This document shows, piece after piece, positions 17,401 through 44,117 of a stretch of DNA of 45,922 bases (positions are counted from its first letter, which is position 1; every line of letters starts with the position of its first letter). Origin of the DNA: Acidimicrobiia bacterium (lineage in GTDB: Bacteria; Actinomycetota; Acidimicrobiia; Spongiisociales; JAHEDJ01); the NCBI GenBank assembly GCA_029210695.1, contig JARGFH010000029.1:1-45922 (forward strand). Reading direction: 5' to 3'. Under the pieces are notes generated by a model that searched no databases, was not told the origin of the DNA, and saw nothing but the letters and a program-made list of their open reading frames with translations. Made by a program: the position numbers and the translations under genes.

Positions 17401-17640
17401 CGGGTCGGTGACTCCCGGGGCGAGAGCGTTACGCAAGCCCGAAACGTAAGTCTGGAGAGAATGGTCGGCAGTGCGCGGGGGCGACTCGCCCCACAGCTCC
17501 CCGATGAGCCGATCGGTGGAAACGACCCGGTTGGCATGGAGTGCCAGCACTGCCAGGAGCGCTCTTTGCTTCGGTGGGCCGAGCGGAACCCGGGCACCAT
17601 CGATGGTGACTTCGAGCGGCCCCAGGATCCGGTACTCCAT
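14434..17640 (-). CDS. Membrane-spanning regulator: SARP-type winged HTH + STAND (nSTAND1-like) NTPase + TM + BMP/PnrA-type substrate-binding domain + small C-terminal beta domain
   Basis: MEYRILGPLEV...KQRALLAVLAL...LWGE is a SARP wHTH. NPYKGL..F, Walker A GPSGCGKSS, Walker B LDQFEELF, LRADFY and EVAHEALLREW indicate a STAND NTPase. A hydrophobic helix lies at ~15775-15850. GDRGWGD, AEAEGSYLVG.AAA and TSMMKR are BMP-like. Confidence 0.85.
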   Translation of the reverse strand: MEYRILGPLEVTIDGARVPLGPPKQRALLAVLALHANRVVSTDRLIGELWGESPPRTADHSLQTYVSGLRNALAPGVTDPAGQVIVTRPPGYQLTVDPDSIDLLRFEEQLEEQILLQDPGLAPERRLPPAAGVGDPDMRNPYKGLQAFSEDDALDYFGREALTTQLVSVLESSRLVAVVGPSGCGKSSVVRAGLIPALRRGAIAGSERWLIARMMPGAHPYAELEAALLRAAPHPPDSLMDQLQSDDLGLLRAVLRVLPDESTQLVLMLDQFEELFSLVDDEANRRRFLDDLVTTLTDPHSRLRVVLTLRADFYDRPLLYPEFGSLFTRTVVNVMPLTAEELERAAIRPAASVGISFEPALLAQLVADVTHQPGGLPLFQYALTELFERREGGTLTLDAYRQIGGLDGALTRRSEELYGRLRPDEQEAARQVFLRLVTLSESMEETRRRVPAGEVMSVEVDPAAVETAIELFATHRLITFDRDPLTGAPTLEVAHEALLREWDRLREWIDSSRDDLRRHGAFAAAVDEWVSADRQVDYLLSGNRLEQYEQWELGSSMRLTALERAFLMESIARRDERQLAEEARREAERRLVRRARRRLTSLISLFVTIAAGAALATIVLLGGETPQVALVFEGRGDRGWGDLEAAGLDRAALEFDIEAFDLLPLVDPLEETRSLIESGFDLVILSGATYSDPLALAPEYPSVWFAMIDGGDWTDPSFLEQPNIVDLEFAEAEGSYLVGVAAALTSTTGTIGYVGGGPVRLLWEFQAGYEAGARSVDPDIEILVTWVSDRLFEGFADPDGGEAAARRLYEQGADVVYHAAGLSGVGVHRAAVELSKETGTHLWMIGSDEDEYWAGSAESRPHVLTSMMKRTDEAIFRTVSGFLDGTLTAGRTVLGLKDGGVGYSQSGGFLTEHLPRLEEARTAIINGAIEVPTAPSGESTVIPPFDIADADKVGSVVFGPEGCRFEEPEPLFANELMGLRLANHHDAPILVAVFRLLEEVPFDPTPAAAAPMPAYADPDNQATFFLEPGQTWSTNGTMVEGTYRVVCLTTFEEAPMVYPAAEFEVGGG

Positions 17641-17718
17641 AGACGACCTCGCCGCGTTGAGCTCCTTCATCAACCTACCTGCTGGGACCTTCGATGTGTT
17701 GATTGCATTCTCCCAATG

Positions 17719-17747
17719 GCAAGCTCCCGGTTGAACCGGGAGCTTGC
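17719..17747. terminator. Strong hairpin between the repeat gene and the regulator
   Basis: GCAAGCTCCCGGTT-G-AACCGGGAGCTTGC perfect inverted repeat, 20 nt after the repeat-gene stop. Confidence 0.65.
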
Positions 17748-17767
17748 TCGGGTGGCGGGGAGGCTGA

Positions 17768-18316
17768 CTAGCCGTTGAACGCCTCACCACGTGCAATCCA
17801 GCGGGCCGAGTCGGCGGCCTGTCCACGGAGTGCCGCCTCCTGTTGTGCTGTTGCTTGTGCGGTGTAGCGGGCGGAGTCGGCGAGTTGTCCCTGGGTGAGC
17901 CCTAGCGTTGCTGCGGCCATTGCCTGATATCTGGCCGTGTCTGCTGCCCAGCTTCGTTGCAGTGATGCTTGCTGTGCTGTTGCTTGTGCGGTGTAGCGGG
18001 CGGAGTCGGCGAGTTGACCTTTCACGATCGCCTGGGTTTGCGCTCGGGCCTGATAGCGGGCCGTGTCTGCCAGCCAGCTCTGCTGGAGGCTGAGCGCTTC
18101 CGCTTGGGCCGTGTAGCGGGCTATGTCGGCCAACTGGCCCTGGGTCAACGCAACCGGCCCGGGCGACGAGGAGGCCACTGCCCCTATCGCCACGCCGACC
18201 ACGACGGCAGCCGCCACGAGGTTGACGAGGGTCCATTTCCGCTTCGACGGTTCGACGACCGTCTGCTTTCCGACCCTGGGACTGGTCTTCTGCTTGTCGA
18301 GTACCTGGGTAGCCAT
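17768..18316 (-). CDS. Hypothetical membrane-anchored/secreted protein with six ADxAR[Y/W] repeats
   Basis: GAGGAGAGG RBS before ATG 18316. Basic N-terminus, hydrophobic helix LVNLVAAAVVVGVAIGAVA, then repeats LADIARY, LADTARY, LADSARY, AADTARY, LADSARY and AADSARW. 182 aa. Confidence 0.85.
   Translation of the reverse strand: MATQVLDKQKTSPRVGKQTVVEPSKRKWTLVNLVAAAVVVGVAIGAVASSSPGPVALTQGQLADIARYTAQAEALSLQQSWLADTARYQARAQTQAIVKGQLADSARYTAQATAQQASLQRSWAADTARYQAMAAATLGLTQGQLADSARYTAQATAQQEAALRGQAADSARWIARGEAFNG
17844..18016. repeat. Identical 44-bp direct repeat inside the repeat-protein gene
   Basis: TGTGCTGTTGCTTGTGCGGTGTAGCGGGCGGAGTCGGCGAGTTG occurs at 17844-17887 and 17973-18016, a period of 129 nt (43 codons). 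Confidence 0.9.
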
Positions 18317-18366
18317 TGTCCTCTCCTCTTCGAGTCGTGCTTCCACCCTCACCATGCCGGAGGTAG

Positions 18367-18406
18367 CTCGCCGGACACTCCACGAGCGCTCTACGGACGC
18401 TCTACG
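18367..18406 (-). promoter_or_regulatory. Four heptamer direct repeats with 11-bp period (SARP/OmpR-type binding array)
   Basis: On the + strand: CTCGCCG 18367, CTCCACG 18378, CTCTACG 18389, CTCTACG 18400. The array lies ~50-90 bp upstream of the repeat-protein start. Confidence 0.65.
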
Positions 18407-18547: not shown

Positions 18548-19768
18548 TCAGTCGATGACGAACTGGAGGGCGGCGTGCGCCGTTCGCAGCGCCTGTTCCA
18601 CCTCGAGCGGCGTGGCGCCCTTGGCGAATAGGAACCCGAGATAGCGATTGCCTTCCGGTAGCGGCCGGATCGTATCGCCGGTGTGCATCGAGATCTCCAG
18701 GTCCGTGATGCCGGGAACGGCGAGCGCCTCCTCGTGACCCGTCACCGAGCGGAGAATCCCGGCCCTGGGGATAGGCAGCATCATGACGCCCGACGCCAGA
18801 CCTTCACGGTGGAGGCCTGCCACCGGCATAGCGAGTGCCCTGCGCAGGATGAGCGTCTCGAGTGAGGTACCGAGCAGGCCGAATCGCAACGAACGCCCGC
18901 ACAGGCCGCCGATCGAGCGAGCGGCCACCTCGAGGAGTACGACGCGCGCGCCGTCGACGCGTAACTCGGCGTGAATTGGGCCTTCACGCAACTCGAGCGC
19001 TGCAACTGCTCGTTCGGTCACCCGGATCACCTCCTCGATCATTTCCGGGTGCAGCCGGGACGGTGTTACGAGGATCGTCTCTTCGAAGTACGGGCCGTCG
19101 AGTGGGTCCGGCTTGTCGAAGACTGCCAGCACCTGGAGGTTTCCGTCCGCGAGAAGTCCTTCGACGGCGACCTCGACGCCGGGTATGAAGCGTTCCACCA
19201 GGATGGGCTCGCCGGGTGAACGACCTTCGGTGATCAGGATGCGGCGGATTTGCTCGGCGGCGGCCGGAGCTTCTGATGGGTCGTCAACCCGGATCACGCC
19301 TTGTGAGGCGCTGAGACCGAGGGGCTTCAACACTGCCGGCGCCCCCAGATCGGCGACCGTGGCTTTCGCCTCGTCTGCGGTGTTCACTACTCCGAAGGCA
19401 GGCTGGGGGACTTCCGCCTTCGCCAGTGCCCTGCGCAGCATGGCCTTGTTTCTCGTGGCGGCTACACCGAACGGGGAGTTGTGGGGCAGTCCGAGCAACC
19501 CGGCGGCCAGTGCGGCTATCTCAACACCCTGGTCATCCGCGGCGACGATGGCGTCGATCGGGTGTCCGTCGGCGTGTGCGACGATCCGCCGCGCGGACAT
19601 CTCAGGTGAGGTGCAATCAATGAGAACACCGGCGCTCTGAGCGCGGTCGGACAAGGGCGGCACAGCCTCCGAGGCAATGGTGATATCGGCTCCGAGTTGG
19701 GAGGCGGCATCGATGAACCCGGCGGCGCGATAGGTAGCGGTCGGAAGGATTAGGACGACGTGGGCCAT
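18548..19768 (-). CDS. ATP-grasp ligase (L-amino-acid-ligase-like architecture)
   Basis: RNKAMLRR, VLKPLGLSASQGVIR, LVERFIPG.EVAVEG, HAELR, LLEVAARSIGG and a LAL-type C-terminal domain. Confidence 0.88.
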   Translation of the reverse strand: MAHVVLILPTATYRAAGFIDAASQLGADITIASEAVPPLSDRAQSAGVLIDCTSPEMSARRIVAHADGHPIDAIVAADDQGVEIAALAAGLLGLPHNSPFGVAATRNKAMLRRALAKAEVPQPAFGVVNTADEAKATVADLGAPAVLKPLGLSASQGVIRVDDPSEAPAAAEQIRRILITEGRSPGEPILVERFIPGVEVAVEGLLADGNLQVLAVFDKPDPLDGPYFEETILVTPSRLHPEMIEEVIRVTERAVAALELREGPIHAELRVDGARVVLLEVAARSIGGLCGRSLRFGLLGTSLETLILRRALAMPVAGLHREGLASGVMMLPIPRAGILRSVTGHEEALAVPGITDLEISMHTGDTIRPLPEGNRYLGFLFAKGATPLEVEQALRTAHAALQFVID

Positions 19769-19841
19769 GGCCTGTGCACCCTACCGGCGTGCGCAATGCA
19801 TGCGAACCGGTACCATGCCGGTTTCGCCAATGGGGAACGGG

Positions 19842-20468
19842 ATGACTGACACGATTCTTTCGATAACTGAAGATGCTCTGCGCATGATTCAACAAATCCG
19901 TGACGCCGAACCCGGCGATGATGAATTCGCCCTGTTCATCGAAGTCACCGGCATGCAGGCCACCCAGTTCAACTATGAGCTCAGCTTCGTGCCGGTTGTC
20001 GATGCTCAACCAACGGATCTCGTCGAAAGAATCGATGACCTGGCGCTCATCGTCCGGCAGGCCGATGCCGACAAGCTGCGGGGCGCCACGATCAACCTCG
20101 GCGACGATCCCATGAACCCCGGGCTTGCCATCGACAATCCGAACAACCCCGTCAGCCCGACGATGCCGAGCGCCGATAAGGCCCAACTCTCCGGCCCGCT
20201 CGTTGAGCAGGTGCAGCACGTTCTCGAGCACGAGGTCAACCCGGCTATCGCCTCACACGGCGGAGCCGCCCGGTTGATCTCCGTGGAGGACGACACCGTG
20301 TATCTGGAGTTGATGGGCGGTTGCCAGGGCTGCGGTATGGCAACGGTGACGCTCAAGCACGGGATCGAGCGGATCATCACTGAGGCCATTCCGGAGATCG
20401 CCAAAGTCGTCGATGTGACGGATCACGCCGGTGGCAGCAACCCCTACTACCAGCAGGCCAAGAAATAG
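19842..20468 (+). CDS. nfuA: Fe-S cluster carrier NfuA
   Basis: Degenerate A-type-carrier N-terminal domain, then VNPAIASHGG...GGCQGC...VVDVTDHAGGSNPYY. Confidence 0.88.
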   Translation: MTDTILSITEDALRMIQQIRDAEPGDDEFALFIEVTGMQATQFNYELSFVPVVDAQPTDLVERIDDLALIVRQADADKLRGATINLGDDPMNPGLAIDNPNNPVSPTMPSADKAQLSGPLVEQVQHVLEHEVNPAIASHGGAARLISVEDDTVYLELMGGCQGCGMATVTLKHGIERIITEAIPEIAKVVDVTDHAGGSNPYYQQAKK

Positions 20469-21254: not shown

Positions 21255-23450
21255 TTGACCACGCTGCAGCGCCATCTGAGCCTCCCGGCCGTTTTCACCG
21301 TGAGCCTTGGTGCGATGATCGGAAGCGGGATCTTCGTCCTGCCGGGCCTGGCCATTCAACTGGCCGGGCCTGCCGCCGTTCTTGCGTACATCCTGGCCGG
21401 TCTTGTGGTCGTTCCTGCAGCCCTCAGCAAGGCAGAAATGGCAACCGCCATGCCGATGGCCGGTGGCACCTACCTGTTCATCGATCGGGCCATGGGCCCG
21501 CTGATGGGAACGATTGCAGGATTCGGAGTTTGGTTTGCCCTTGTGTTCAAGGCTGCGTTCGCGCTGGTCGGATTCGAGGGTTACCTCGATTTTTTCGTTG
21601 ATGTCCCGGTTCAGTGGGTAGGAATCGGTCTGGGGGTTCTGCTGACCGGAATGAATGCCACGGGGGTGCGGCTGTCCGGCCGGTTCCAGACGGTCATCGT
21701 GGCGGCGGTGTTGGCCGTCCTCGGGTTCATCGTCGTGGTCGGGGCCGGATCGATGGATGTCGACGCATTCACGCCGTTCGCTCCTGAGGGACTCGGCGGT
21801 CTCATCGCAGCAACCGCACTCGTGTTCGTATCGTACGCGGGGGTTACCAAGGTCGCCTCGGTGGCCGAAGAAGTGAAGAACCCATCCCGGTCCCTTCCGA
21901 TCGGCATGCTCGGCTCGATCGGACTGATGCTGGTTCTCTATCCGGCTCTGTTGATGGTGATCGTTGGGACGGTGCCGCTTGCCACGATCGGTTCCGATCC
22001 GGCGCCGATGGTGGCCGCCGCCCGGCAGTTCACAGGATCGCTCGGCCAGGACATCGTGGCGGTAACCGCCATTCTCGCCCTCGTCAGCATGGCGAATGCC
22101 GGCCTGCTCAGCTCGTCGCGATATCCGTTTGCGATGGCCCGAAACGCGCTGGCGCCTCGCTTCTTCGAGCGGGTTGGTAAACGGAGCGGAACACCGACCG
22201 CATCCGTTCTGGTGACCGGGTCGATGCTGATCCTGTTGATCGCCACGGTCCCGCTCATCGAGCTCGCCAAGCTTGCCTCCGCCTTTCAAGTGCTCGTGTT
22301 TTCTCTGGTCAATCTCTCTGTGATTGCTTTCCGCGAGGCGAAGGTCCCGTGGTATCGGCCGGGATTCAAGTCGCCTTTCTACCCGTATATTCAGATCGCC
22401 GGCATCGCCGGTGCCCTCGTGCTGTTCACCCAACTTGGGTTGTTTCCGGTCGTCGGGGCTGTGGGAATCGTCATGGTTGGGGTGATTTGGTACAGGATCT
22501 TCGGACAATCGCGCGTGTCCCACGAGAGTGCTCTCCTCGATGCACTCCGACTGCGGGCGACGAGCCGTCTCGTCGATTTGACCCGGGATGCCCTGAGCCT
22601 CCCAGGCCGTGACCACATCCTGATTCCGGTGTCCGACGCGATCGTCTCGAGTCGTCTGCGGGCCTTGCTCCGGCTGGCGAACGGCCTCGTCGCCGATGAT
22701 GGTCGGATCACCCTGGCTCGCGTCGATCGCGATGTGAGGGGTGCGTTGTGGTGGAAGCGGGCCAGGTTCCCGGAGGCCAGCGACCCGTTCCGGATCGGGG
22801 TCAGGCGTATCGCTGATGAGCTCGGGATTGATGTTGGTGTGGTCCGCCCGCGTGGTGCGGATGTTCGCGCCGCGCTCAACGACTACCTCGCCAGGCATTC
22901 AGTGGACCTTGTGCTGACCTACCAGTCGGAGCCCGGTAGGCGACGACGGGGCTTCTCTGCTGATGTCAGGTGGCTTCAGGAACACGCATCCTGCGACGTG
23001 GCGATCTTGCATGGTGGTGAGGTCGTGGATCCTCGCCGCATCACGGTCATGGGGGCGGGTTCGCCCTATGACGTCATGAAGATCGATGTCGGAAACCGGT
23101 TTGCGACTGCTCCAGGTGCCGCGATTTCCTTTGTACACGTCCTGCCGGAGGACGCCACCGATCCACAGGTTGACGCTATCAAGGGTTATCACATGCAACT
23201 CGAGGGACTCTGCCGCGCTCCAACCTCGAGTGTTGTGGAGCGGGCGCCCGACTTCCTGGAAGCGATCGCGGCGCGAGGCCGCGGCTCCGATCTCGTGATC
23301 CTCGGCGCCTCCCGGAGGACGACCGGGCTTGGAGCGGAGTTGACGGACAGCATCGCCGAGGCGGTCCAGGCCCCGGTATTGGTGGTGTCCTCACGTGAGC
23401 CGGGGACTCCCGGCTTTCTCCGGGCAAATCTGGAGCGGTTGATCTACTGA
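21255..23450 (+). CDS. APC-family amino acid permease fused to C-terminal universal-stress-protein-like domains
   Basis: GAMIGSGIFVLPG, AGGTY and AEEVKNP motifs with ~12 TM segments. The C-terminus has HILIPV, CDVAIL, SDLVILGA and APVLVV. Confidence 0.88.
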   Translation: MTTLQRHLSLPAVFTVSLGAMIGSGIFVLPGLAIQLAGPAAVLAYILAGLVVVPAALSKAEMATAMPMAGGTYLFIDRAMGPLMGTIAGFGVWFALVFKAAFALVGFEGYLDFFVDVPVQWVGIGLGVLLTGMNATGVRLSGRFQTVIVAAVLAVLGFIVVVGAGSMDVDAFTPFAPEGLGGLIAATALVFVSYAGVTKVASVAEEVKNPSRSLPIGMLGSIGLMLVLYPALLMVIVGTVPLATIGSDPAPMVAAARQFTGSLGQDIVAVTAILALVSMANAGLLSSSRYPFAMARNALAPRFFERVGKRSGTPTASVLVTGSMLILLIATVPLIELAKLASAFQVLVFSLVNLSVIAFREAKVPWYRPGFKSPFYPYIQIAGIAGALVLFTQLGLFPVVGAVGIVMVGVIWYRIFGQSRVSHESALLDALRLRATSRLVDLTRDALSLPGRDHILIPVSDAIVSSRLRALLRLANGLVADDGRITLARVDRDVRGALWWKRARFPEASDPFRIGVRRIADELGIDVGVVRPRGADVRAALNDYLARHSVDLVLTYQSEPGRRRRGFSADVRWLQEHASCDVAILHGGEVVDPRRITVMGAGSPYDVMKIDVGNRFATAPGAAISFVHVLPEDATDPQVDAIKGYHMQLEGLCRAPTSSVVERAPDFLEAIAARGRGSDLVILGASRRTTGLGAELTDSIAEAVQAPVLVVSSREPGTPGFLRANLERLIY

Positions 23451-29430: not shown

Positions 29431-29607
29431 GTGCTACGCAAAGGTACCCGGGTGAAGGAACTCACCAAGAAGACCGGGCAGAGGCCGAGGACCGGCCAGG
29501 TGATCGGCTTCCATCACGACTCGGTCGAGGTCGAGTGGGACGATGGCCACCGTTCGTCCCTGGCGGGGGCGCTGCTGGTGCCGCAGGAGAAGTCGAAGGC
29601 CGGCTGA
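29431..29607 (+). CDS. Small basic hypothetical protein (SH3-like/DUF1918-like)
   Basis: Strong AGGAGGAGG RBS before GTG. 58 aa containing RTGQVIG...VEVEWDDGHRS. Confidence 0.7.
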   Translation: MLRKGTRVKELTKKTGQRPRTGQVIGFHHDSVEVEWDDGHRSSLAGALLVPQEKSKAG

Positions 29608-29626
29608 GCGCGATCGGAAGCCGGGC

Positions 29627-30568
29627 ATGATCGAGGTATTGCTGCTCCTCGCCCTACCGGCCTCGGGGAAGTCCGAGATTCGCCGGTACCTCGACACGCT
29701 TTCAGCCGGGGAGCGGATGGAGACGTTTGGTCTCAGGCCGATGGTCCAGCTCGACGATTTCCCATACGTTCACCTGATGCGACGGATCTCAGAGGAAGCC
29801 GAGCACCTCGGTGTGGCCCCACCTTTCTTCGCAGGCCCCGGCCCTTTCATCGATCAGCGCGATTGGGGCACACTCATTCACCTCATCAACCAGGACTACG
29901 CGGCGCTCAGCGGGCCGGGGTCGCAAGAGACATCCGCCGGCCGGTGGCTCGTTCGCAGGATGGTCAACGCCAGAGAGGCGGCCGGCGCCGGCCCCTCGTT
30001 CGACTTCCTGGATACGGCCGTGGTCCGGCATATCGAGGAATCGATCGACGGCGAGGCAAGGCTGTTGCTGGAGGAGGTCTCGGCGCGACGGTTGGAGCCG
30101 GGTGGCACGGTGCTGATCGAGTTCGCCCGCGGTGGACCGGCCGGGTCAAGTTGTCCATTGCCAGCCCCGTTCGGATATCAGTACTCACTGTCGTTGCTGG
30201 CGGCCCCGATACTCGAGCGGTCGGCGGCCCTCTACATATGGGTGACGCCTGAGGAGAGCCGGCAAAAGAACCGCGAACGCTCGATTCCCGGCGAGGAAGG
30301 CTCGATTCTGCACCATGGGGTCCCCGAGCAGGTCATGATGGACGACTACGGGATGGACGACTTCCGCTGGCTCATGTCGCAGTCCCCATTGGATGGCACG
30401 ATCGAGGTGAAGTCGGGAGACCGAATACTCGAGCTACCGGCGGCCGTATTCGACAATCGGGGCGACCTGACCTCGTTCCTGAGGGAAGATCCGGCGTCCT
30501 GGAGTGACGAAGATCTGGCCGGGCTGCGTGCCGGGCTGGCGGATGCGTTCAGACGACTCAGCGAGTGA
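29627..30568 (+). CDS. Hypothetical P-loop kinase-like protein
   Basis: N-terminal strand followed by ALPASGKS (Walker A variant), then VLIEFARG and LYIWVTPEESRQKNRER. The layout resembles NMP kinases. Confidence 0.7.
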   Translation: MIEVLLLLALPASGKSEIRRYLDTLSAGERMETFGLRPMVQLDDFPYVHLMRRISEEAEHLGVAPPFFAGPGPFIDQRDWGTLIHLINQDYAALSGPGSQETSAGRWLVRRMVNAREAAGAGPSFDFLDTAVVRHIEESIDGEARLLLEEVSARRLEPGGTVLIEFARGGPAGSSCPLPAPFGYQYSLSLLAAPILERSAALYIWVTPEESRQKNRERSIPGEEGSILHHGVPEQVMMDDYGMDDFRWLMSQSPLDGTIEVKSGDRILELPAAVFDNRGDLTSFLREDPASWSDEDLAGLRAGLADAFRRLSE

Positions 30569-34851: not shown

Positions 34852-36747
34852 GTGACCCGTCGATACGATCGGCTGACGCAACCGTTGGTCAGGGAGGACG
34901 GCCGGCTTCGCCCGGCAACATGGGACGAGGCGCTCAACCGCGCCGCCCTCGGAATCCAGGAGGCGGTCGACCAGCACGGTGCGACCTCGGTCGGGATGTT
35001 CAGCTGCTCGAAAGCCACCAACGAGATGAACTACTTCGCGCAGAAGTTCATGCGGGTGGCCGTCGGCAGCAACAACATCGACTCGTGTAACCGCACCTGA
35101 CACGCTCCCAGCGTCGTCGGTCTGGCGACGGTCTTCGGAGCAGGAGGCGGAACAAGCTCCTACGGCGAGATCGAGAACACCGATCTCATCATCCTCTGGG
35201 GTTCGAACGCCCGCGACACACATCCGATCTTCTTTCACCACCTCCTCAAGGGTGTGAAGCGCGGAGCGCGCCTGTACGTCATCGATCCGCGTCGCTCTTC
35301 GTCGGCCCGGTGGGCCGACTTGTGGCTGGGCATCGACGTCGGCTCCGACATTGCGCTGGCAAATGCGGTCGGTCGCGAGATCATCGCCGCCGGTCTCGCC
35401 AACGAGGCCTTCATCAGCACTGCCACCGTCGGGTTTGAGGACTACCGGGAGTCTGTTGAGCGATGGACGCTCGAGCGCGCCGAGGCGGTCACCGGCGTGC
35501 CGGCAGAGGGCATTCGTGAACTCGCCCATGCCTATGCCACGGCCGGCACCGCCCAGCTGTGCTGGACCCTTGGAATCACCGAGCACCACAACGGCTCCGA
35601 CAACGTTTTCGCACTCATCAACCTGGCCTTGCTGACCGGGCACGTCGGTCGCTATGGATCGGGCCTGGTGCCCATCCGGGGCCAAAACAACGTCCAGGGC
35701 GGCGGTGACATGGGTGCCCTTCCCAACAAGTTGCCGGGTTTTCAGGACGTCGAGGATGGAGAGCTACGTGCCAGATTCGAAGCCAAGTGGGTGAGCAGGA
35801 TTCCCGATCACAATGGGTGGAACATAAGCGAGATGTTTGACGCCATGGAGCGGGGTGACCTTCGCAGCCTGTACGTGATCGGCGAGAACCCTGCCCAGAG
35901 CGAAGCACAGGCTGTGCGGGCGCGCACGCTGCTGGAGGGACTCGACTCGCTGATCGTGCAGGATCTCTACCTGACCAAGACCGCCGAAATGGCAGACGTC
36001 GTGCTTCCGGCGGCCGCTTCGTGGGCCGAGACGGAAGGCACCGTGACGTCGTCCGAGCGGCGAGTGCAGCGAGTACGAAAGGCCGTGGATCCGCCCGAAG
36101 GAGCGCGAGCCGATACCGACATTTTGTCCGAACTGGCCGGACGGTTCGGGAAAGACCTGGGTTCCTCGGCTGCCGAGGACATCTGGAATGAGCTACGCGA
36201 GCTCTCCCCGATGCACGCCGGCATGAGTTACGCACGCCTCGAGGCCGAGGGCGGCTTGCGGTGGCCCTATCGTTCGGAAGATGATCCGGGCGCACTGTTC
36301 CTTCACGGCCGCTTGTGGGCGGATCCGCCCGAAGGCCCCCCGGCCCCGTTCACTCCGGTCGAGCATGCCCCGCCCGTCGACGAGCTAACCGACGAATACC
36401 CGATCCGGTTGACCACCGGCCGGCACCTCGAGTCGTACAACACCGGCGTTCAAAGTAGCCGGATGGACTCGCCCAAACGGCAGGGCGGATGCATCGATCT
36501 CGACCCCCGCGATGCAGAAGGGCTCGGACTCGAGGATGGGGAGGTGGCGCGGATCGTGTCGCGGCGCGGTGCAATCGAAGCGCCTGTCCGGGTGGACCAC
36601 AATCTCCGGCCGGGCCTGGCCTTCATGGCTTTCCATTTCCCGGACGAGGTCGACGTCAACATTCTGACCATCGACGCCTGGGACCCACGCTCAGGAACCG
36701 CCGAGTTCAAGGCTTCGGCCATTCGGATCGAGAAGATAGGAGCCTGA
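34852..36747 (+). CDS. fdhF: Selenocysteine-containing formate dehydrogenase catalytic (Mo/W-bisPGD) subunit, lacking the N-terminal Fe-S domain
   Basis: ORFs 34852-35100 and 35254-36747 are in one frame separated only by TGA 35098-35100, reading NNIDSCNRT-U-HAPSVVGL, the FDH Sec/Cys-His active site. Also RGQNNVQGGGDMG and a C-terminal LTTGR. AGGAGG RBS present. Confidence 0.93.
35112..35130 (+). promoter_or_regulatory. Bacterial SECIS-like hairpin of fdh
   Basis: CGTCGTC-GGTCT-GGCGACG, a 7-bp stem (one G:U) with a 5-nt G-first loop, beginning at the 12th nt after UGA. Confidence 0.8.
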
Positions 36748-36748
36748 A

Positions 36749-38566
36749 TTGGATCTCCACTTCGCGCAGGCCGAGGCAACTGCAGCAGAGCGGTCCGTGA
36801 TCGACCTGTTCATGGAGGGCCAACCGTCGGCGAACGGATTGACCGAGGAGACCAGGCTCGAGCGGCCGCGCAGCAGGGAACTGAGGGAACTGCTCCTGCC
36901 CGGCCTCCACGCTCTCCAGTCTGGGATCGGATGGATCAGCCATGGAGCTCTGAACCACTTGTGCGAGGCCCTCTCCGTGCCTCCTGCTGATGCGTACGGG
37001 GTCGCTTCGTTCTACAGCATGCTGGCGTTGTCTGAGCAGGCGCCCGATGTTCTCCATGTGTGCGACGACATCGTCTGTCGCTCCAATGGGGCGATGGAGC
37101 TCATTGATGAATGTGAACGCGTTTTCGGTCCTGAGGGAACCGGTCAAGCGGTCGGCTGGCACCGCAGCCCCTGCCTGGGCAGATGTGATCGGGCACCGGC
37201 CGTTTTCGTGCAACGAACAGGAACCGACGATTTCGATCATGGTCCTGTGCACGCCGATTTGTCCGGCCGGCCGCTCGACGGTTTAGCCGAGCTCGCCCGC
37301 ATGAACCTCGAACTCGGGATCGACCGATCAACCACGCCGCAGGGACCTGCCGAAGTCCGGCTGCTGCGACGCATCGTCCAAGGGGTCGATCCGGCCTCCC
37401 TCGAGTCGTACCGGTCCAACGGCGGGTACGCGGCCCTCGAACAGGCGCTGGCGATCGGTCCAGCCACCATCCGGGCTCTCATTGCCGCCTCGGGATTGAC
37501 GGGGCGCGGTGGGGCCGGGTTTCCCACCGGCCGCAAGTGGGACATGGCGGCAGCCGAACCGGCCCCCCGCTACGTAGTTGCCAACGCCGACGAGTCGGAG
37601 CCCGGCACGTTCAAAGATCGGCTGCTGATCGAAGGGGATCCATTCGCCCTGATCGAATCACTGACGATTGCTGCGCTGGCGGTGGGCGCCTCCAAAGGCT
37701 TCGTGTACCTGCGCGGTGAATACCCGCTGGCCAGACAACGACTGGCCGCCGCGCTGGTCTCCGCCCGTTCTGCCGGCTTGCTCGGAGACGGCATCCTCGG
37801 CTCGGGCACGTCGTTCGACATCGAGTTGCGGGTAGGCGCCGGCGCCTACATCTGCGGCGAGGAAACGGCCCTGTTCAACTCGATCGAGGGATACCGTGGA
37901 GAACCCCGCAACAAGCCACCCTACCCAACGCAGGCCGGTCTCTTCGGCCGCCCAACCGTGGTGAACAACGTCGAGACCCTGCTCAATGTCCCCATCATCA
38001 TCACGGGGGGACCCGAGGCGTACCGTGAACTCGGAACTGATCTATCGACCGGCACGAAAGTCTTTGCGATCTCCGGGCATGTAGGTGTTCCCGGGGTCTA
38101 CGAGGTCCCGTTCGGAACCACACTGCAGGACCTCCTGGCCCTTGCAGGAGGGATGCGCAACGGATCATCCCTCCGGTCGGTCCTCCTCGGCGGAGCCGCC
38201 GGGACCTTCATCGGACGCGAAGCGCTCGAAATGCCACTGGCGAACGAGAGGGCGGCTGAATATGGGGCATCGCTGGGATCTGGAGCCGTCGTCGTGTTCG
38301 ACTCCGCCACGGATATGGCAGATATCGTCGCCAGGATTGCCGCCTTCTTCCGCGACGAATCGTGTGGTCAGTGTGCACCATGCCGGATCGGAACGGTGCG
38401 ACAGGAAGAACTGCTGGTGAGGGCGCGCGCCGGGTTCGATGCAGCTCCTCTGATCCGGGAGGTTGGTCAAGCGATGACCGATGCGTCGATCTGCGGACTC
38501 GGCCAGACCGCCGCCAACGCGGTGCGATCTGCCATCGACCTGGGCCTGATTCGAGGTGGCGTATGA
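36749..38566 (+). CDS. Fused NuoE-like [2Fe-2S] + NuoF-like FMN/NAD-binding subunit (diaphorase module of an NAD-dependent FDH)
   Basis: VCDDIVC...PCLGRCD, GRGGAGFPTG, NADESEPGTFKDR, GAGAYICGEETAL and ESCGQCAPCR..SICGLG motifs. Confidence 0.9.
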   Translation: MDLHFAQAEATAAERSVIDLFMEGQPSANGLTEETRLERPRSRELRELLLPGLHALQSGIGWISHGALNHLCEALSVPPADAYGVASFYSMLALSEQAPDVLHVCDDIVCRSNGAMELIDECERVFGPEGTGQAVGWHRSPCLGRCDRAPAVFVQRTGTDDFDHGPVHADLSGRPLDGLAELARMNLELGIDRSTTPQGPAEVRLLRRIVQGVDPASLESYRSNGGYAALEQALAIGPATIRALIAASGLTGRGGAGFPTGRKWDMAAAEPAPRYVVANADESEPGTFKDRLLIEGDPFALIESLTIAALAVGASKGFVYLRGEYPLARQRLAAALVSARSAGLLGDGILGSGTSFDIELRVGAGAYICGEETALFNSIEGYRGEPRNKPPYPTQAGLFGRPTVVNNVETLLNVPIIITGGPEAYRELGTDLSTGTKVFAISGHVGVPGVYEVPFGTTLQDLLALAGGMRNGSSLRSVLLGGAAGTFIGREALEMPLANERAAEYGASLGSGAVVVFDSATDMADIVARIAAFFRDESCGQCAPCRIGTVRQEELLVRARAGFDAAPLIREVGQAMTDASICGLGQTAANAVRSAIDLGLIRGGV

Positions 38567-39468
38567 TCGAGTTCACACTGGACGGGAAGCCGGCCATTGC
38601 TCCGGACGGGGCCACTCTGCTCGAGGCGCTGGCCGGCAACGGTGTCGGGACGCCGACGCTGTGCTATCTGCCGCAGGCGAGCGCTCCCAACGTCTGCCGG
38701 GTTTGTGTCGTCGAGGTGGCAGGGAACCGTCCCCTCGTCCCGGCTTGTTCCCGCCCACTCGAGGAGGGGATGGTGGTCGATTCCGATAGCGCCCGGGTGC
38801 GCCACGCCAGGAAACTCGTATTCGAGATGCTCGCCTCGTCGGTTGACCTCTCGCTCGTCTCCGACGAGGCCCGCCAATGGATGGAAGAGTACGAAATCGA
38901 TCCCGACCGCTTCCAGACGGCGCTCCCGGCCAATCAGACTTCCGCTCCGAGCCGGCCCGGCCGGCATCAGGACCCGGACGGTCTTTCCTTCGCCCGTCAC
39001 CAACCGCCTGCCCTCATTCAGGACAACCTCTATGTCCGGGACTACGCCAAGTGCATCCTGTGCTACCAGTGCGTACAGGCGTGCGGCCCCGAGGCCCAGA
39101 ACACCTTTGCGATCAGCGTTGCCGGGCGCGGCTTCGACGCACGAATCGCCACCGAGTTCGACGTGTTCCTGCCCGAATCGGCCTGTGTCTATTGCGGGAA
39201 CTGCATTGCCGTATGTCCAACCGGGGCACTCGTGCCCAAGACCGAGTTCGATCTCAGGGCGGCGGATGAGTGGGATGAGGATCGACAGTCGGTGACCAGG
39301 ACCGTTTGTCCCTACTGCGGGGTCGGATGCAACCTCGACCTGACGGTTCAGGACGGGGCCATCGTACGGGTCGATGCCCCGGTTGATCATGACGTCACGG
39401 TGGGCAATCTCTGTATCAAAGGTCGCTTCGGGTGGACCCATGTGGTGGGCGGGTCGGTCGCCGACTAA
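38563..39468 (+). CDS. Fe-S subunit: [2Fe-2S] + 2x[4Fe-4S] + molybdopterin-oxidoreductase Fe4S4 domain (the separated FDH N-terminus)
   Basis: PTLCY...CRVCVVE...PAC, CILCYQCVQAC, CVYCGNCIAVCPTG, and C-terminal TVCPYCGVGC...LCIKGRFG. Confidence 0.9.
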   Translation: MIEFTLDGKPAIAPDGATLLEALAGNGVGTPTLCYLPQASAPNVCRVCVVEVAGNRPLVPACSRPLEEGMVVDSDSARVRHARKLVFEMLASSVDLSLVSDEARQWMEEYEIDPDRFQTALPANQTSAPSRPGRHQDPDGLSFARHQPPALIQDNLYVRDYAKCILCYQCVQACGPEAQNTFAISVAGRGFDARIATEFDVFLPESACVYCGNCIAVCPTGALVPKTEFDLRAADEWDEDRQSVTRTVCPYCGVGCNLDLTVQDGAIVRVDAPVDHDVTVGNLCIKGRFGWTHVVGGSVAD

Positions 39469-39516
39469 CCACGCCCACGATATGCACTAGCGTGCATACG
39501 AAACCCCGGGAAAGAG

Positions 39517-40902
39517 ATGCAACAGACCGACGTCGAAACACGCCTGAAGAGGCTCGAGGAACTCTGCTCCGCACTGCAATCAGATTTGCCTTCCGATGCC
39601 AAAGCTCTCGTCACCGAGATCAACGCGCTCGCTGCAGAGGTCGAGGTCAACTATCGGGATCTCCTGGCTCTCGATCAACTCGCTGCGCACGTTGGCGGCG
39701 GACTACTGCTCGACGAAGTCCTCGACGATATCTACAACGGGTTCCGCGATGTGATCCCGTACGATCGTATCGGCTTCTCGCTCATCAACGACGGAATCGT
39801 CACGGCGCGCTGGTTGCGCTCGGAATCCGAGTTGGTTCGCCTCGGGGCCGGGTACGCACTACCGATCGAGACGACGAGCCTGGCCGGGATCCTGGCGGAG
39901 GGGAGACCGAGGATCATCAACGATCTTGGTTCGTACCTCGCCACCCGGCCTGAGTCGGAGTCGACCCGGTTGCTCGTCGAGGAGGGCGTGCAATCGTCGC
40001 TGACCTGCCCCCTGCTCATTGACGGGAAGGCAGTCGGGTTCCTCTTCTTCTCGAGTTTCGAGCCGGGGGCCTACTCAGAGATCCACACGAACACGTTCGA
40101 ACGCATCGCAGACCAACTGGCTGGCGTCATCGAAAAGGGGAAGCTGACCAGTCAGCTCGCCGAGCGGGCGGCGGCCATCGAGGAGCAGAACCGGCAACTC
40201 CGAGCACTCGATGACATCAAGAACACCTTCATCGGGATGGTCAGCCACGACTTGCGGAGCCCCCTGGCCACCATTCAGGTCACGGCCGACCTCCTCGACG
40301 AGGCCGATTATCTTGCCCCCGTCGAGCGAAAGATGCTCATCAAAGACATCAAAGAGCAGTCGGGCTACATGCTCGCCCTCGTCAACGAATTACTGGATGT
40401 AGCTCATATCGAGTCGGGCAGGCTCGAACTGAATAGAGAGACTTTCGATCTCGAAGCGCTCGTTGCCGACTCCGTGAATCGACACGGATACCTGGCAGGC
40501 CCGAAAGATATCCGGGTCGTGCTGGTCGAGAGCAGCCCGGCGGTGATCGAAGCCGATCGGACCCGGATCCGCCAGGTCCTCGACAATCTGCTGTCGAATG
40601 CGATCAAGTATTCCCCGATGGGCAGTGTTGTCTCGGTGACGCTCACGATTGAACATGATGTGATCCGGGTCGGTGTCACGGATGAGGGCCCCGGCATATC
40701 GGAGGCAGACCAGGTACGGCTGTTCGAGTACTTCGAGACCGCCGAGGCCAAACCAACCGGCGGCGAAACCTCAACCGGGCTCGGCCTCGCCATCGCCAGG
40801 AAGATCGTAGAGGCTCATCAGGGGACGCTGGACGTCGAGAGCACACCCGGTCGGGGTAGCACGTTCTGGTTCGAGTTACCGCCGACCACGGTGGACCCGT
40901 AG
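39517..40902 (+). CDS. Cytoplasmic GAF-domain sensor histidine kinase
   Basis: GAF-like SSLTCPLLIDGKAVG, H-box VSHDLRSPL, N-box NLLSNAIKY, DEGPG and GLGL. No TM segment. Confidence 0.9.
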   Translation: MQQTDVETRLKRLEELCSALQSDLPSDAKALVTEINALAAEVEVNYRDLLALDQLAAHVGGGLLLDEVLDDIYNGFRDVIPYDRIGFSLINDGIVTARWLRSESELVRLGAGYALPIETTSLAGILAEGRPRIINDLGSYLATRPESESTRLLVEEGVQSSLTCPLLIDGKAVGFLFFSSFEPGAYSEIHTNTFERIADQLAGVIEKGKLTSQLAERAAAIEEQNRQLRALDDIKNTFIGMVSHDLRSPLATIQVTADLLDEADYLAPVERKMLIKDIKEQSGYMLALVNELLDVAHIESGRLELNRETFDLEALVADSVNRHGYLAGPKDIRVVLVESSPAVIEADRTRIRQVLDNLLSNAIKYSPMGSVVSVTLTIEHDVIRVGVTDEGPGISEADQVRLFEYFETAEAKPTGGETSTGLGLAIARKIVEAHQGTLDVESTPGRGSTFWFELPPTTVDP

Positions 40903-40931
40903 GTGAGGATCGAACGTAGGATGGGGGTCCA

Positions 40932-42278
40932 GTGAGAATCCTGCTCATCTCCTCCTACGAACTCGGTCACCAACCATTCCACGTCGCATCGGCTGCAGCC
41001 GCCCTGCGTTCGACCGGGCACGAGGTGCGGGTCTGCGATCTCAGTCTCGAGCCGCTCAGGGAACCCGATGTTGCGTGGTCCGAAGGGGTTGCCCTGGCAG
41101 TCCCGATGCACACGGCGATGAGGATTGCATTGGGCGCCGCGCAATCGGTGAGAAAGATGCGGCCGGACATTCCGTTGTGCTTCTTCGGCCTTTACGCCGG
41201 AGCATCCGATCTCCCCATCGGAGCGGTCGCTCTGGCAGGGGAGTATGAGCCCGACCTCATCCGGTGGGCGGCTGGATTAGGAGCAGGGGCGGTTGTGAAT
41301 CTCCAGAAATCGGCAATACGGTTCGCCCCCGATCGTTCCGACCTCGCTCCGTTGACGGCCTATGTGGGGCTCGAGCTGGCCGGACGGCGTCGTACCGCGG
41401 GATCAACCGCGGCAACGCGCGGGTGCCGCTACCGGTGCCGGCATTGCCCGGTGCCGGTTGTCTACGACGGCAAGTTTCGGCCCATCGACCGTCGGATCGT
41501 TCTCGAAGACATCGACCGGCAGGTGGCAGCAGGAGCCGGGCACATCAGTTTCTCCGACCCGGACTTCCTCAACGGGCCCGCCCACGCGCTCCGGGTTCTC
41601 GAGGAGGCACGCCTCCGGAATCCTGAGCTCACCTTCGATGTCACAATCAAAGTGGAACACCTGCTGCGGCACCGCCACCTCCTTGGGCGGATGGCGGAGC
41701 TCGGTGTTGTGTTCGTGGTCTCGGCCTTCGAGACCACCAACGACGAGATACTGCACATCCTCGACAAGGGACATACGGCGTCGGATTTGGCAGAGGCCGT
41801 CCACTTGTTGCGTGCCTGTGGCATCGACGTTCGCCCTACCTGGCTTCCTTTCACCCCATGGTCGACCTTGGAAGACCTGGTCGAGATGCTCCGGTTCATG
41901 GATCGCCACGATCTCGATGTTGATCCCATCCAGCTGACGATCAGGCTATTGATACCGTCCGGATCTCTGCTGCTGGACCTCCCCGAGTCCCAGTGGAAAC
42001 CTGGTCCTTACGATGCCGAGGCGTTGAGCTACTCATGGATTGCGGCCGACCCGGTCCTCGACGCTCTCCAGTCCCGCCTGGTACGTCTCGTTGATGGGGC
42101 AACCGGTCTCTCTCGGGACGAGGTCCTCGCAACCATGACCAGGGAGATCCTGGCTGCGGCCGGGATCGACGAAGAATCCGTACGGCTCTCGAGCGGCGAA
42201 GGGAGGCCACGGCTCACCGAACCGTGGTTTTGCTGAGCGGAGCCCTCCGACCGCCAGTTGGGCGGTCTGCGGACCTAG
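40932..42278 (+). CDS. CUAEP-tail radical SAM selenoprotein
   Basis: CxxxCxxC motif (GCRYRCRHCP) and a B12-binding-like N-terminus. The ORF 'ends' PRLTEPWFC-TGA, but in-frame readthrough gives C-U-AEPSDRQLGGLRT-TAG, the CUAEP/CCAEP tail. Confidence 0.88.
42249..42267 (+). promoter_or_regulatory. SECIS-like hairpin of the radical SAM gene
   Basis: GACCGCC-AGTTG-GGCGGTC, a perfect 7-bp stem with a 5-nt loop, beginning at the 13th nt after UGA 42234-42236. Same geometry as the fdh hairpin. Confidence 0.72.
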
Positions 42279-42385
42279 TGGTCTGTCTGCTATTTGATGA
42301 CCGGGGTAGGCAGTGCCACGAACCCTGCCACAGCGGGGATCGTCCGGCAGGAGACCAAGTCACCAAATCCGCGACGGACCACTAG
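42275..42385. mobile_element. Putative 111-bp MITE with CTAG-bounded terminal inverted repeats
   Basis: Left end CTAGTGGTCTGTCTGCTATTTGATGAC versus reverse complement of right end CTAGTGGTCCGTCGCGGATTTGGTGAC: 21/27 identical. The interior is non-coding. Confidence 0.6.
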
Positions 42386-42406
42386 CGGTGTGTTACTCCT
42401 CGCGAC

Positions 42407-43033
42407 TCAGCCGTCCTCGAGCAACCGGAGCACTTCTTCATCAGTCGTCTGGGTGAAGTCTCGATACCAGAAGCCGACGGCGCGCAGGTCTCTCGGTGCG
42501 GAAACCGTTTCGACGCCATCTGCCAGGGCTGCGAGCGCCTCTATCGTGTCTCTGGCCCCAACCGGCACGGCCAGTATCACCCGATCGGCATGTCGGCGGC
42601 GAGCAGCCAGGACGGCTGCTCTGGCCGTGAACCCGGTGGCCAGACCATCGTCGACGACGATTGCCACCCGCCCTTCCAGAGCCACCTCTGGTCGTTGGCG
42701 ACGGTACCGGTCGACGCGCCGCTGGAGTTCTGCCCGCTCGCGCGCTTCGACGGCCGACAGCTGTGCCTCGCTCACTCGCAGGTACCGCATTAGATCGTCG
42801 TTCACCACGCGCACTCCGTGCTCGGCGATCGCCCCGATTCCGAGTTCCGGCTGGCCGGGCGCTCCGAGCTTGCGAACGACGATGATGTCGAGCGGACATT
42901 GGAGGTGGGTGGCGATTGGTTTTCCAACCGCGACGCCTCCGCGCGGGAGGCCGAGCACGACCGGGTGCTCGGCGCGATATTCACCGAGTTCCTGGGCGAG
43001 TTGCCTGCCGGCGTCAAAACGATCGTGAAACAC
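42407..43033 (-). CDS. Phosphoribosyltransferase family protein
   Basis: FHDRFDAGRQLA, LGLPRGGV, VRKLGAP..PELG.GA and PRPP loop IVVDDGLATG. Confidence 0.88.
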   Translation of the reverse strand: MFHDRFDAGRQLAQELGEYRAEHPVVLGLPRGGVAVGKPIATHLQCPLDIIVVRKLGAPGQPELGIGAIAEHGVRVVNDDLMRYLRVSEAQLSAVEARERAELQRRVDRYRRQRPEVALEGRVAIVVDDGLATGFTARAAVLAARRRHADRVILAVPVGARDTIEALAALADGVETVSAPRDLRAVGFWYRDFTQTTDEEVLRLLEDG

Positions 43034-43169
43034 CGTTTCACCAGTATCGCCCGCTGGGCGCAGCGTCACAAGACCGCGGGGAGGTGAATGGAACGGTAGT
43101 TTGTGTGGCGGGAGCGACGGCATCACAACCTCATGGCATCGTCGGCCTGCTCAGCAAAGGGAGACAGAG

Positions 43170-44117
43170 ATGGTTGATACGACCCGGGTTCTCGACTGCC
43201 GGGACCTCCACAAGAGCTATGGCGAGCGGAAGGCCGTCGATGGCGTCGGCTTCCACATCGATCTGGGTGAGACTTACGGGTTGCTGGGGCCCAACGGTGC
43301 AGGGAAGACCACAACGATTTCGATGGTCTGCGGCCTCCTCAGGCGAGATGTCGGCGAAGTGAAGGTGGTCGGCGAGGCAATCGATGTCGGACAGACGCAC
43401 GCCAAGCGGTGGATCGGGTATGTCCCGCAGGATCTGGCGATATACCCCGATCTCACCGCGGAGGAAAACCTCGCCTTCTTTGGCAGGCTGTACGGGCTCA
43501 CCGGGAAGGCCCTGAAGAACCGAACGGACGCGGTGCTGGAGGTGACCGGGCTGTCCGATCGCCGGGCGGACAAGACGGACGAGTACTCCGGAGGCATGAA
43601 GCGGCGCCTCAACATCGGCATCGGCCTCCTTCATGAGCCGAGCCTCTTGATTCTGGACGAGCCGACCGTCGGCGTCGATCCACAGAGTCGCAATGCCATT
43701 CTGGATAGCGTGGAGCAGCTTTCGGGCGAAGGCATGGCTGTGCTCTACACGACGCACTACATGGAGGAAGCCGAGCGCCTCTGCGACCGGGTTGGAATCA
43801 TCGATCAGGGTCAGTTGAAGGCTGAAGGAACGCGACGCCAACTCGTCGAACTGGTCGGTCAGCACGACCGGATTCGCGTAATCGCAGAAGGCGATGTCGA
43901 TGGTGCCGCCGCTGCTGCCCGATCCGTCGACGGCGTGGAGGATGTGAGCAAGGTAGACAATCGCCTTGACATCCTCACTGCCGATGCCCGGGTCATCCTT
44001 CCTGCCCTTCTCCTGGTCATGTCGACCGCCGGTGCCGCGGTCAAGAGCGTCGACGTGGTTGAACCCGACCTCGAAGCCGTGTTCCTGCACCTAACCGGCA
44101 AGGCATTGCGAGACTGA
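43170..44117 (+). CDS. ABC-2 exporter ATP-binding protein
   Basis: GPNGAGKTT, YSGGMKRR, LDEPTVGVDPQSR and TTHYMEE motifs. AAAGGGAG RBS. Confidence 0.93.
   Translation: MVDTTRVLDCRDLHKSYGERKAVDGVGFHIDLGETYGLLGPNGAGKTTTISMVCGLLRRDVGEVKVVGEAIDVGQTHAKRWIGYVPQDLAIYPDLTAEENLAFFGRLYGLTGKALKNRTDAVLEVTGLSDRRADKTDEYSGGMKRRLNIGIGLLHEPSLLILDEPTVGVDPQSRNAILDSVEQLSGEGMAVLYTTHYMEEAERLCDRVGIIDQGQLKAEGTRRQLVELVGQHDRIRVIAEGDVDGAAAAARSVDGVEDVSKVDNRLDILTADARVILPALLLVMSTAGAAVKSVDVVEPDLEAVFLHLTGKALRD

Follow-up and report, generated by a model that had tools for sequence, protein, structure and literature searches.

A predicted selenoprotein of the CUAEP/CCAEP-tail radical SAM family on an Acidimicrobiia contig: evidence for recoding of an in-frame TGA and a possible role for its Cys-Sec tail

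The locus at 40932–42278 (+) of contig JARGFH010000029.1 from an Acidimicrobiia bacterium raises the question of whether the TGA codon at 42234–42236, at which a gene for a radical S-adenosylmethionine (SAM) enzyme appears to end, is a stop or is read as selenocysteine (Sec), and what a vicinal Cys-Sec pair at the end of such an enzyme might do. The stretch of DNA analyzed, referred to below as the window, is the entire contig (45.9 kb). ORF (open reading frame) calling gave an ordinary frame at 40932–42236 with a product of 434 aa, the end of which reads ...GRPRLTEPWFC, with TGC at 42231–42233 and TGA at 42234–42236. According to the original prediction, made from the sequence alone, this TGA follows WFC and is itself followed in frame by AEP and 10 more codons, so that truncation at the TGA would cost the protein 14 residues; on re-reading the sequence, both statements were exact (434 versus 448 aa). 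The full selenoprotein coding sequence occupies 40932–42278 (+) and comprises 448 residues, with a GTG start, UGA-435 as Sec, and a TAG stop. The vicinal pair Cys434 (TGC) and Sec435 (TGA) lies at 42231–42236 (+), Cys434 being invariant across homologs, and the in-frame translation of 42237–42275 (+) gives the 13-codon tail AEPSDRQLGGLRT, made only upon UGA recoding, after which the TAG at 42276–42278 closes the read-through frame. At the other end of the protein, the N-terminus MRILLISSYELGHQP agrees with the homolog consensus MRVLLVSTYELGHQP. It should be noted that a 13-codon open frame beyond a stop is in itself unremarkable in G+C-rich DNA. Nevertheless, the UGA at 42234–42236 is almost certainly decoded as selenocysteine, to judge from the Sec/Cys column among homologs, the coding constraint downstream of the codon, the truncated homologs, and a covarying hairpin, which are the reasons for this assignment; comparative evidence thus shows a predicted product terminating in ...WF-Cys434-Sec435-AEPSDRQLGGLRT.

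At least 583 relatives were recovered in a genome scan with one genome per species, and the comparison was continued with the best 80 loci; tails were readable in 79 of these loci and in the window (n = 80), the tail of locus L067 being cut at a contig end. The codon after W[F/Y]C was TGA in 33 readable tails, the window among them, and TGC or TGT in 47. Loci with the WFC motif (n = 62) had TGA as the next codon in 19 cases, TGC in 30, and TGT in 13, and loci with the WYC motif (n = 18) had TGA in 13 and a Cys codon in 4, one being cut by a contig end. The tail motif C-(U/C)-[A/S]EP after PRLTEPWF was found in 79 of the 80 loci (GRPRLTEPWFC-U-AEPS in the window), and [A/S/T]EPxxxQ followed the TGA in frame in all 33 Sec forms. 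The expectation that homologs would carry either Cys or UGA at this column before a conserved AEP was therefore borne out, with [A/S]EP in place of strict AEP. In the four codons after the UGA of the Sec forms, the minor-base counts at codon positions 1, 2, and 3 were 6, 2, and 44, respectively, and this third-position bias points to purifying selection on the translated sequence downstream of the UGA. Shortening of the protein by standard annotation, which had likewise been foreseen, was evident from database entry P0001 (434 aa) and from the 120 best homolog clusters, 56 of which stop exactly at ...WFC, while 38 have CCAEP, 24 have CCSEP, and two have longer ends (P0059 and P0090). The nearest relatives, P0002–P0016 (62–90% identical, 434–437 aa), all end in ...WFC; in these, a TGA with a downstream hairpin of the kind described below is inferred from the truncation only. 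According to the comparative evidence, position 435 has repeatedly switched between Sec and Cys within the family, at least 10 such changes being needed on a quick tree and at least 4 being forced by its well-supported branches.

Folding of the window RNA bore out the claim that a hairpin resembling a selenocysteine insertion sequence (SECIS) lies at the right distance from the UGA. The hairpin, GACCGCC-AGUUG-GGCGGUC, is located at 42249–42267 (+), 12 nt after the UGA, and consists of a 7-bp stem (42249–42255/42261–42267) and the loop AGUUG (42256–42260). Homologs were compared in a fixed register in which positions +16 to +22 pair with +28 to +34 (U of UGA = 1); locus L010 was omitted from the counts, its flank being too short. 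Among the WFC-type TGA forms (n = 20), 18 had all seven pairs and two had six, versus an average of 2.9 pairs in 42 Cys forms. When the WYC forms were included and a loop of 4 or 5 nt was allowed, 21 of the 33 Sec forms had 7/7 pairs, 10 had 6/7, and two had 5/7; the Cys forms in the same test (n = 46) had a mean of 3.5/7 pairs, and two of them reached six or more. The loop begins with AGUU in 28 of 33 Sec forms versus 5 of 46 Cys forms. In the 20-sequence alignment, 98.6% of the cells were paired and compensatory changes occurred in six of the seven pairs, the observed covariation scores being reached in none of 500 shuffles; when the 3′ arm was slid by 1–3 columns, pairing fell to only 30–59% of the cells. 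Since the hairpin is limited to Sec forms and shows compensatory changes in 6/7 pairs, the element at 42249–42267 is, as far as comparative sequence analysis goes, a SECIS element. Its consensus CAG UUN GGN is also coding, and the Sec-form tails therefore read Gln-Phe/Leu-Gly. The 76-nt fold of the window had z = −2.9. No Rfam family matched anywhere in the window at gathering thresholds, and a search around the tail at E ≤ 10 returned just chance-level microRNA and small RNA matches. A second hairpin of 7 pairs is found at 42269–42286 (+), with the loop UAGU, the TAG stop within that loop, and a weak T-run after it; a promoter scan of 39300–43300 gave no promoter-like site.

Were the TGA an ordinary stop, the protein would end at Cys434 and both the downstream frame and the hairpin would be incidental, the latter perhaps a terminator; this is considered hardly probable. 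The gene callers do end the protein at Cys434 (P0001 again), but Cys occupies the column in 47 of 80 homologs and is followed there by the same [A/S]EP, and the variation after the UGA has the third-position bias of coding sequence. The hairpin at 42269–42286 overlaps the TAG and was one of the sites called terminator-like, but such sites were at chance level in 39300–43300 (2 found versus 1.8 expected). Over the 63 nt downstream of the codon, TGA and Cys forms did not differ in total folding energy (p = 0.52), which would suit a plain stop; the hairpin itself, however, covaries and is confined to TGA forms. Two negative results weigh against Sec decoding and speak for a stop: ARAGORN detected no tRNA or transfer-messenger RNA genes in the window, hence no tRNA-Sec there, and no SelA, SelB, or SelD domains were present among the 37 ORFs scanned on the 46-kb contig.

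Indirect support for Sec decoding in this organism comes from a formate dehydrogenase (FDH) gene, the catalytic part of which carries a TGA in frame at the site canonical for Sec (35098–35100 (+), ...SCNRT-U-HAPSVVGL). This part (34852–36747), located about 7 kb upstream on the same strand, scored 644 bits against TIGR01591 when read through, and its TGA aligns with the Sec (printed X) of E. coli FDH-H (1AA6). A hairpin is present at 35112–35130 (+), with 7 bp and the loop GGUCU, one nucleotide nearer its UGA than that of the radical SAM gene; the overall fold of the region is not significant (z = −0.48). Within 34852–39468 (+), the FDH alpha subunit is encoded in separate, permuted pieces, each with its own start and stop: the catalytic piece at 34852–36747 (TIGR01591 positions 50–672) is followed by a NuoE/NuoF-like fusion at 36749–38566 and by the N-terminal Fe-S (iron–sulfur) part at 38563–39468, which finishes with TIGR01591 positions 1–48. 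Where one piece stops (...GRFGWTHV...) and the other begins (...YDRLTQPLVRE), the sequences look like consecutive segments of one protein. The two candidate selenoprotein genes stand in one co-directional string of five genes at 34852–42278 (+), with gaps of at most 48 nt, in the order fdhA-C, nuoEF, fdhA-N, GAF histidine kinase, and radical SAM.

The read-through protein had its best NCBIfam match in NF040546, "CUAEP/CCAEP-tail radical SAM (seleno)protein" (496.1 bits, E = 9 × 10−149, residues 3–443), and the truncated form scored 477.2 bits. The second match was ArsL (NF040542, rSAM_RCCLKC; 229 bits, E = 1 × 10−67, residues 3–382, 406 of 423 profile positions), and every other NCBIfam family gave 39 bits or less. 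The family named in the original prediction thus exists and is by far the best match, and the statement that its function is unknown agrees with the Haft 2022 preprint, where the family appears among the uncharacterised ones and CU motifs are taken to point to an interaction with heavy metals. One point stands against the assignment, namely that the curated cut-off of NF040546 is 500 bits, so that the window protein lies 4 bits below it. Of 13 other family sequences scanned, 11 scored 516–623 bits, and two fell below the cut-off: L027 (496.6) and P0005 (468.0), the latter being 69% identical to the window protein, in the same subclade, and named by NCBI only "radical SAM protein". In a quick IQ-TREE maximum-likelihood tree (79 rows, support from the Shimodaira–Hasegawa-like approximate likelihood ratio test (SH-aLRT) only, L028 and L067 left out), the window protein was nested in a clade of 61 rows with 99% SH-aLRT, its long branch (0.94) leaving the exact sister unresolved, and members scoring above the cut-off occurred on both sides of the tree midpoint. 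We take the shortfall to mean that a fast-evolving Acidimicrobiia-type branch just fails to reach an operational threshold, not that it is excluded, and the window protein very probably belongs to the NF040546 family.

The sole Pfam domain of the protein is Radical_SAM (PF04055, residues 162–320, 58 bits versus a cut-off of 29.5), which contains the CX3CX2C motif of the [4Fe-4S] cluster (Cys165, Cys169, and Cys172; 41424–41447 (+)), invariant in 48 of 48 and in 79 of 79 sequences. In the homolog alignments, the only invariant cysteines were C165, C169, C172, and C434. The AlphaFold2 model built from the 48-sequence alignment had a predicted local distance difference test score (pLDDT) of 93.4 and a predicted template modelling (TM) score of 0.92; pLDDT was 78 for residues 431–440 and 70 for residues 441–448, with a short helix at 440–444, and the tail is accordingly predicted by the model to be ordered rather than floppy. 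The nearest structures in Foldseek were enzymes combining a Rossmann and a radical SAM domain (OxsB, AprD4, TsrM, MgmA, MiaB, RimO, and CysS; TM approximately 0.6), and sequence searches of solved structures gave remote matches only (ELP3 and TsrM). No ArsL structure was found in the PDB searched by sequence or by fold.

ArsL is the only characterised relative of the CUAEP/CCAEP family. With 229 bits against an NF040542 cut-off of 450 and a CUAEP tail rather than RCCLKC, the window protein is, by profile score and tail motif, a homolog of ArsL and not a member of its family. Passages of PMC8552651 describe a canonical CX3CX2C in ArsL (at 194–201 of the 428 aa of BgArsL) and a gene cluster with arsM and arsQ. 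In passages of two preprints, SAM cleavage by ArsL yields methylthioadenosine and a 3-amino-3-carboxypropyl radical, the cysteines in the C-terminal RCCLKC of the enzyme bind As(III), and once this tail is removed or mutated, As binding is lost and the C-As bond is no longer made, while SAM cleavage is kept (10.1101/2024.02.01.577332; 10.64898/2026.04.29.721666); the latter has As held by three Cys. The passages of these preprints do not name the CUAEP/CCAEP family. The original prediction had offered, besides a redox arm, a metal- or metalloid-carrying arm as the role of the tail, and this latter reading gains indirect support, by analogy, from the homology to ArsL.

A further lead was provided by the gene neighborhood. 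All ORFs within approximately 8 kb of the radical SAM gene were clustered across 81 loci, some with short flanks, and the standout partner was a protein of about 420–440 aa with ATPgrasp_N, ATP-grasp_4, and LAL_C2 domains, of the L-amino-acid-ligase type. In 43 of the 81 loci, the ligase gene was the direct neighbor of the radical SAM gene in the same orientation. It stood on the upstream side in 33 of these (Actinomycetota, Chloroflexota) and on the downstream side in the other 10 (Acidobacteriota, Verrucomicrobiota); it lay within 4.5 kb in four more loci, including L078 of Myxococcota, and was present as a fragment in another four, two of them cut by contig ends. The window has a ligase ortholog, a putative partner with the same three domains, at 18551–19768 (−), 21 kb from the radical SAM gene, and its product is 55% identical to the neighbor in L037 and 45% identical to that in L069 over the full length. 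The best solved relatives of the ligase were the L-amino acid ligases BL00235 (3VOT, E = 6 × 10−28) and BacD. According to a table of a review (PMC6920838), BL00235 makes Met-Gly and Met-Met. Methionine shares its 2-amino-4-X-butanoate skeleton with the product proposed below for the radical SAM enzyme. A functional link between the radical SAM gene and the ligase is, on this comparative evidence, fairly likely. The ligase ortholog at 18551–19768 (−) is divergent from an NfuA-like gene for Fe-S biogenesis at 19767–20465 (+), the start codons of the two overlapping, and an amino-acid permease gene (21255–23447) comes after the NfuA-like gene.

The explanation that we favor, by a modest margin, as a whole combines a selenoprotein, a substrate-holding tail, radical formation of a C-X bond, and the ligase. 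The enzyme would consist of an N-terminal Rossmann-like domain, a barrel with the [4Fe-4S] cluster and SAM (Cys165/169/172), and a C-terminal domain, and its conserved end PRLTEPWFC-U/C-[A/S]EP would dock back on the protein. The Cys-Sec pair could then hold a soft atom at the active site (As, Sb, or a chalcogen as persulfide or perselenide), a SAM-derived radical would attack the held atom to give a C-X bond and an amino acid of the 2-amino-4-X-butanoate type, and the ATP-grasp ligase would couple this amino acid to another. The substrate-holding tail is proposed because of the homology to ArsL together with the Sec/Cys pair on the equivalent C-terminal tail; taken on its own, that role has, by analogy, somewhat less than an even chance, and chemistry based on an aminocarboxypropyl radical, also argued by analogy, is more tentative. 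Several observations speak against this explanation. The tail offers two chalcogen ligands versus three Cys in ArsL, with no third conserved Cys, and the sequence cannot tell an aminocarboxypropyl radical from a 5′-deoxyadenosyl radical. The ligase is non-adjacent in the window and was not within 8 kb in 30 of the 81 loci, the window included, although some flanks were very short. No arsenic-related Pfam domain was found in any of the recurrent neighbor clusters scanned. Finally, many loci lie amid housekeeping genes (pyruvate dehydrogenase (PDH) E1, aconitase, YggX), a context more in keeping with a core function than with a specialised metabolite.

Two other roles for the tail have to be weighed against that of a substrate holder. 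Interchange of Sec and Cys is usual for redox selenoproteins, and mammalian thioredoxin reductase ends in Gly-Cys-Sec-Gly. A redox-active selenenylsulfide arm, which would relay electrons or resolve a disulfide or persulfide arising in the catalytic cycle, would thus be in keeping with the vicinal Cys-Sec on a C-terminal extension, an arrangement like that of thioredoxin reductase, and with the interchange of Sec and Cys at position 435, and a tail pLDDT of 70–78 versus 93 overall is compatible with mobility; however, the protein has neither a second conserved Cys pair nor a flavin domain, its invariant cysteines being the cluster ligands and C434, and the Cys tail of the nearest characterised homolog binds substrate and does not cycle redox states. 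Such an arm is therefore regarded as unlikely. Still less probable is a catalytic auxiliary within the active site, in which case Sec/Cys435 would quench a product radical by donating a hydrogen atom or would bind axially to a cofactor, for instance cobalamin in the N-terminal B12-like domain. Cys-on ligation of cobalamin is a feature of HgcA, many homologs of the window protein carry the precomputed B12-binding Pfam domain PF02310, and the nearest folds include the cobalamin-dependent OxsB, TsrM, MgmA, and TokK; yet the window protein itself had no PF02310 match at E ≤ 0.01, and AprD4, whose fold is no more distant, is listed with substrate alone. The part of the Haft 2022 preprint dealing with these proteins describes the CU motif as common to the family and HgcA, whereas the passages on ArsL (10.1101/2024.02.01.577332; 10.64898/2026.04.29.721666; PMC8552651) report no cobalamin in that enzyme.

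The remaining neighbors of the radical SAM gene apparently varied among lineages. In the window, its upstream neighbor is the GAF histidine kinase gene at 39517–40902, 29 nt away; downstream are a convergent phosphoribosyltransferase-like gene (42407–43126) and a DrrA-like ABC (ATP-binding cassette) ATPase with ABC-2 permeases, from 43101 to beyond 45887. In a subset of Acidimicrobiia, this ABC set likewise comes after the radical SAM gene, the ATPase cluster being represented in 21 loci. Other recurrent neighbors among the 81 loci were DUF169 (15 loci), an alpha/beta hydrolase (13), and YggX (12), together with PDH E1, aconitase, a short-chain dehydrogenase/reductase, MoaA, a DsrE-like protein, and a Cys-rich protein without a Pfam match. 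Each of the non-ligase neighbors is found in a minority of the 81 loci and is apparently limited to certain lineages. In a tblastn search of the window, DUF169, YggX, the hydrolase, and the Cys-rich protein had no homologous counterpart, and the ligase, used as a control, was found. The Cys-rich protein (approximately 245–300 aa), which carries a vicinal Cys pair (...QGCCSYGAHF...) and a conserved ...DACIFLNRP..., is encoded directly downstream in L030, L046, L070, and L075 and about 3.6 kb upstream in L018, L020, and L067. A small DsrE/DsrF-like gene (E = 4 × 10−4, below the Pfam cut-off) was noted on the opposite strand in L004, L008, L013, L028, L042, and L064, upstream in L042 and just downstream in the other five; the match is too weak for use as a hint of a sulfur or selenium relay. 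Elsewhere in the window, the gene at 14437–17826 (−) encodes an unusual fusion of 1130 residues that combines Trans_reg_C, an nSTAND1 NTPase, and a Bmp/PnrA-like substrate-binding domain, and the ORFs at 17771–18383 (−) and 29543–30565 (+) had no Pfam match at E ≤ 1.

That this family exists and includes selenoproteins is not new: NCBIfam has it on record, and so does the Haft 2022 preprint, which was the only item in the searched literature to give the CUAEP/CCAEP family name and the accession NF040546. As far as the searched library shows, the SECIS consensus with its covariation, the sub-threshold Acidimicrobiia subclade, the mechanistic lead from ArsL, and the conserved ligase partner are new. 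Ordinary gene calling truncates the gene, and because the subclade falls just under the cut-off, even a selenoprotein-aware pipeline would probably name the product only "radical SAM protein"; the consensus given here (a UGA, a 12-nt spacer, a 7-bp stem, and the loop AGUU(N)) could rescue such genes. The family is large and spread across several soil phyla, and the kinship with ArsL, the position of the tail, and the ligase neighbor together make a concrete hypothesis open to experimental testing. The boldest form of it, in which the CUAEP/CCAEP enzyme and the ligase constitute a widespread, unrecognised two-gene pathway of soil bacteria that forms a radical C-X bond on an atom held by Cys-Sec and then a dipeptide, is a long shot. 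If it were true, the pathway would yield a dipeptide of a new amino acid of the organo-arsenic, -antimony, -selenium, or -sulfur type, and the enzyme would be the first selenoprotein to use Sec as the ligand holding a substrate during radical formation of a C-X bond.

The elements of this system resemble known ones to differing degrees. Bacterial SECIS elements such as that of E. coli fdhF have a G-U in the apical loop approximately 20 nt after the UGA. The hairpin described here is similar to the fdhF type in lying within the coding sequence just 3′ of the UGA and in having G-U in the loop (G24 and U25, with U of UGA = 1), and differs in its short 7-bp stem, its family-specific loop AGUU(N), and the lack of an Rfam model match. 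A vicinal Cys-Sec or Cys pair near the C-terminus is likewise not peculiar to this family, thioredoxin reductase having a C-terminal GCUG and MerA a C-terminal Cys pair. The corresponding part of the Haft 2022 preprint lists CU motifs in HgcA, MerT, and SAO proteins; however, all five of these comparators (thioredoxin reductase, MerA, HgcA, MerT, and SAO) are flavoenzymes, transporters, or corrinoid proteins that are non-homologous to the window protein, and their pair is not coupled to radical SAM chemistry. ArsL is similar in size and layout, in its CX3CX2C, and in the vicinal cysteines on a C-terminal tail, but its tail is RCCLKC with three Cys, whereas that of the window family is C-U/C-AEP with two chalcogens, and its neighbors are arsM and arsQ, whereas the CUAEP/CCAEP family is accompanied by an ATP-grasp ligase, with no ars genes in the neighbor clusters scanned. 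The closest likeness is to the NF040546 family: although the window protein departs from it in having AEPS instead of AEPT, a long branch, a non-adjacent ligase partner, and a score of 496.1 bits, it shares the tail PRLTEPWFC-[U/C]-[A/S]EP and the CX3CX2C motif and is nested in the family tree.

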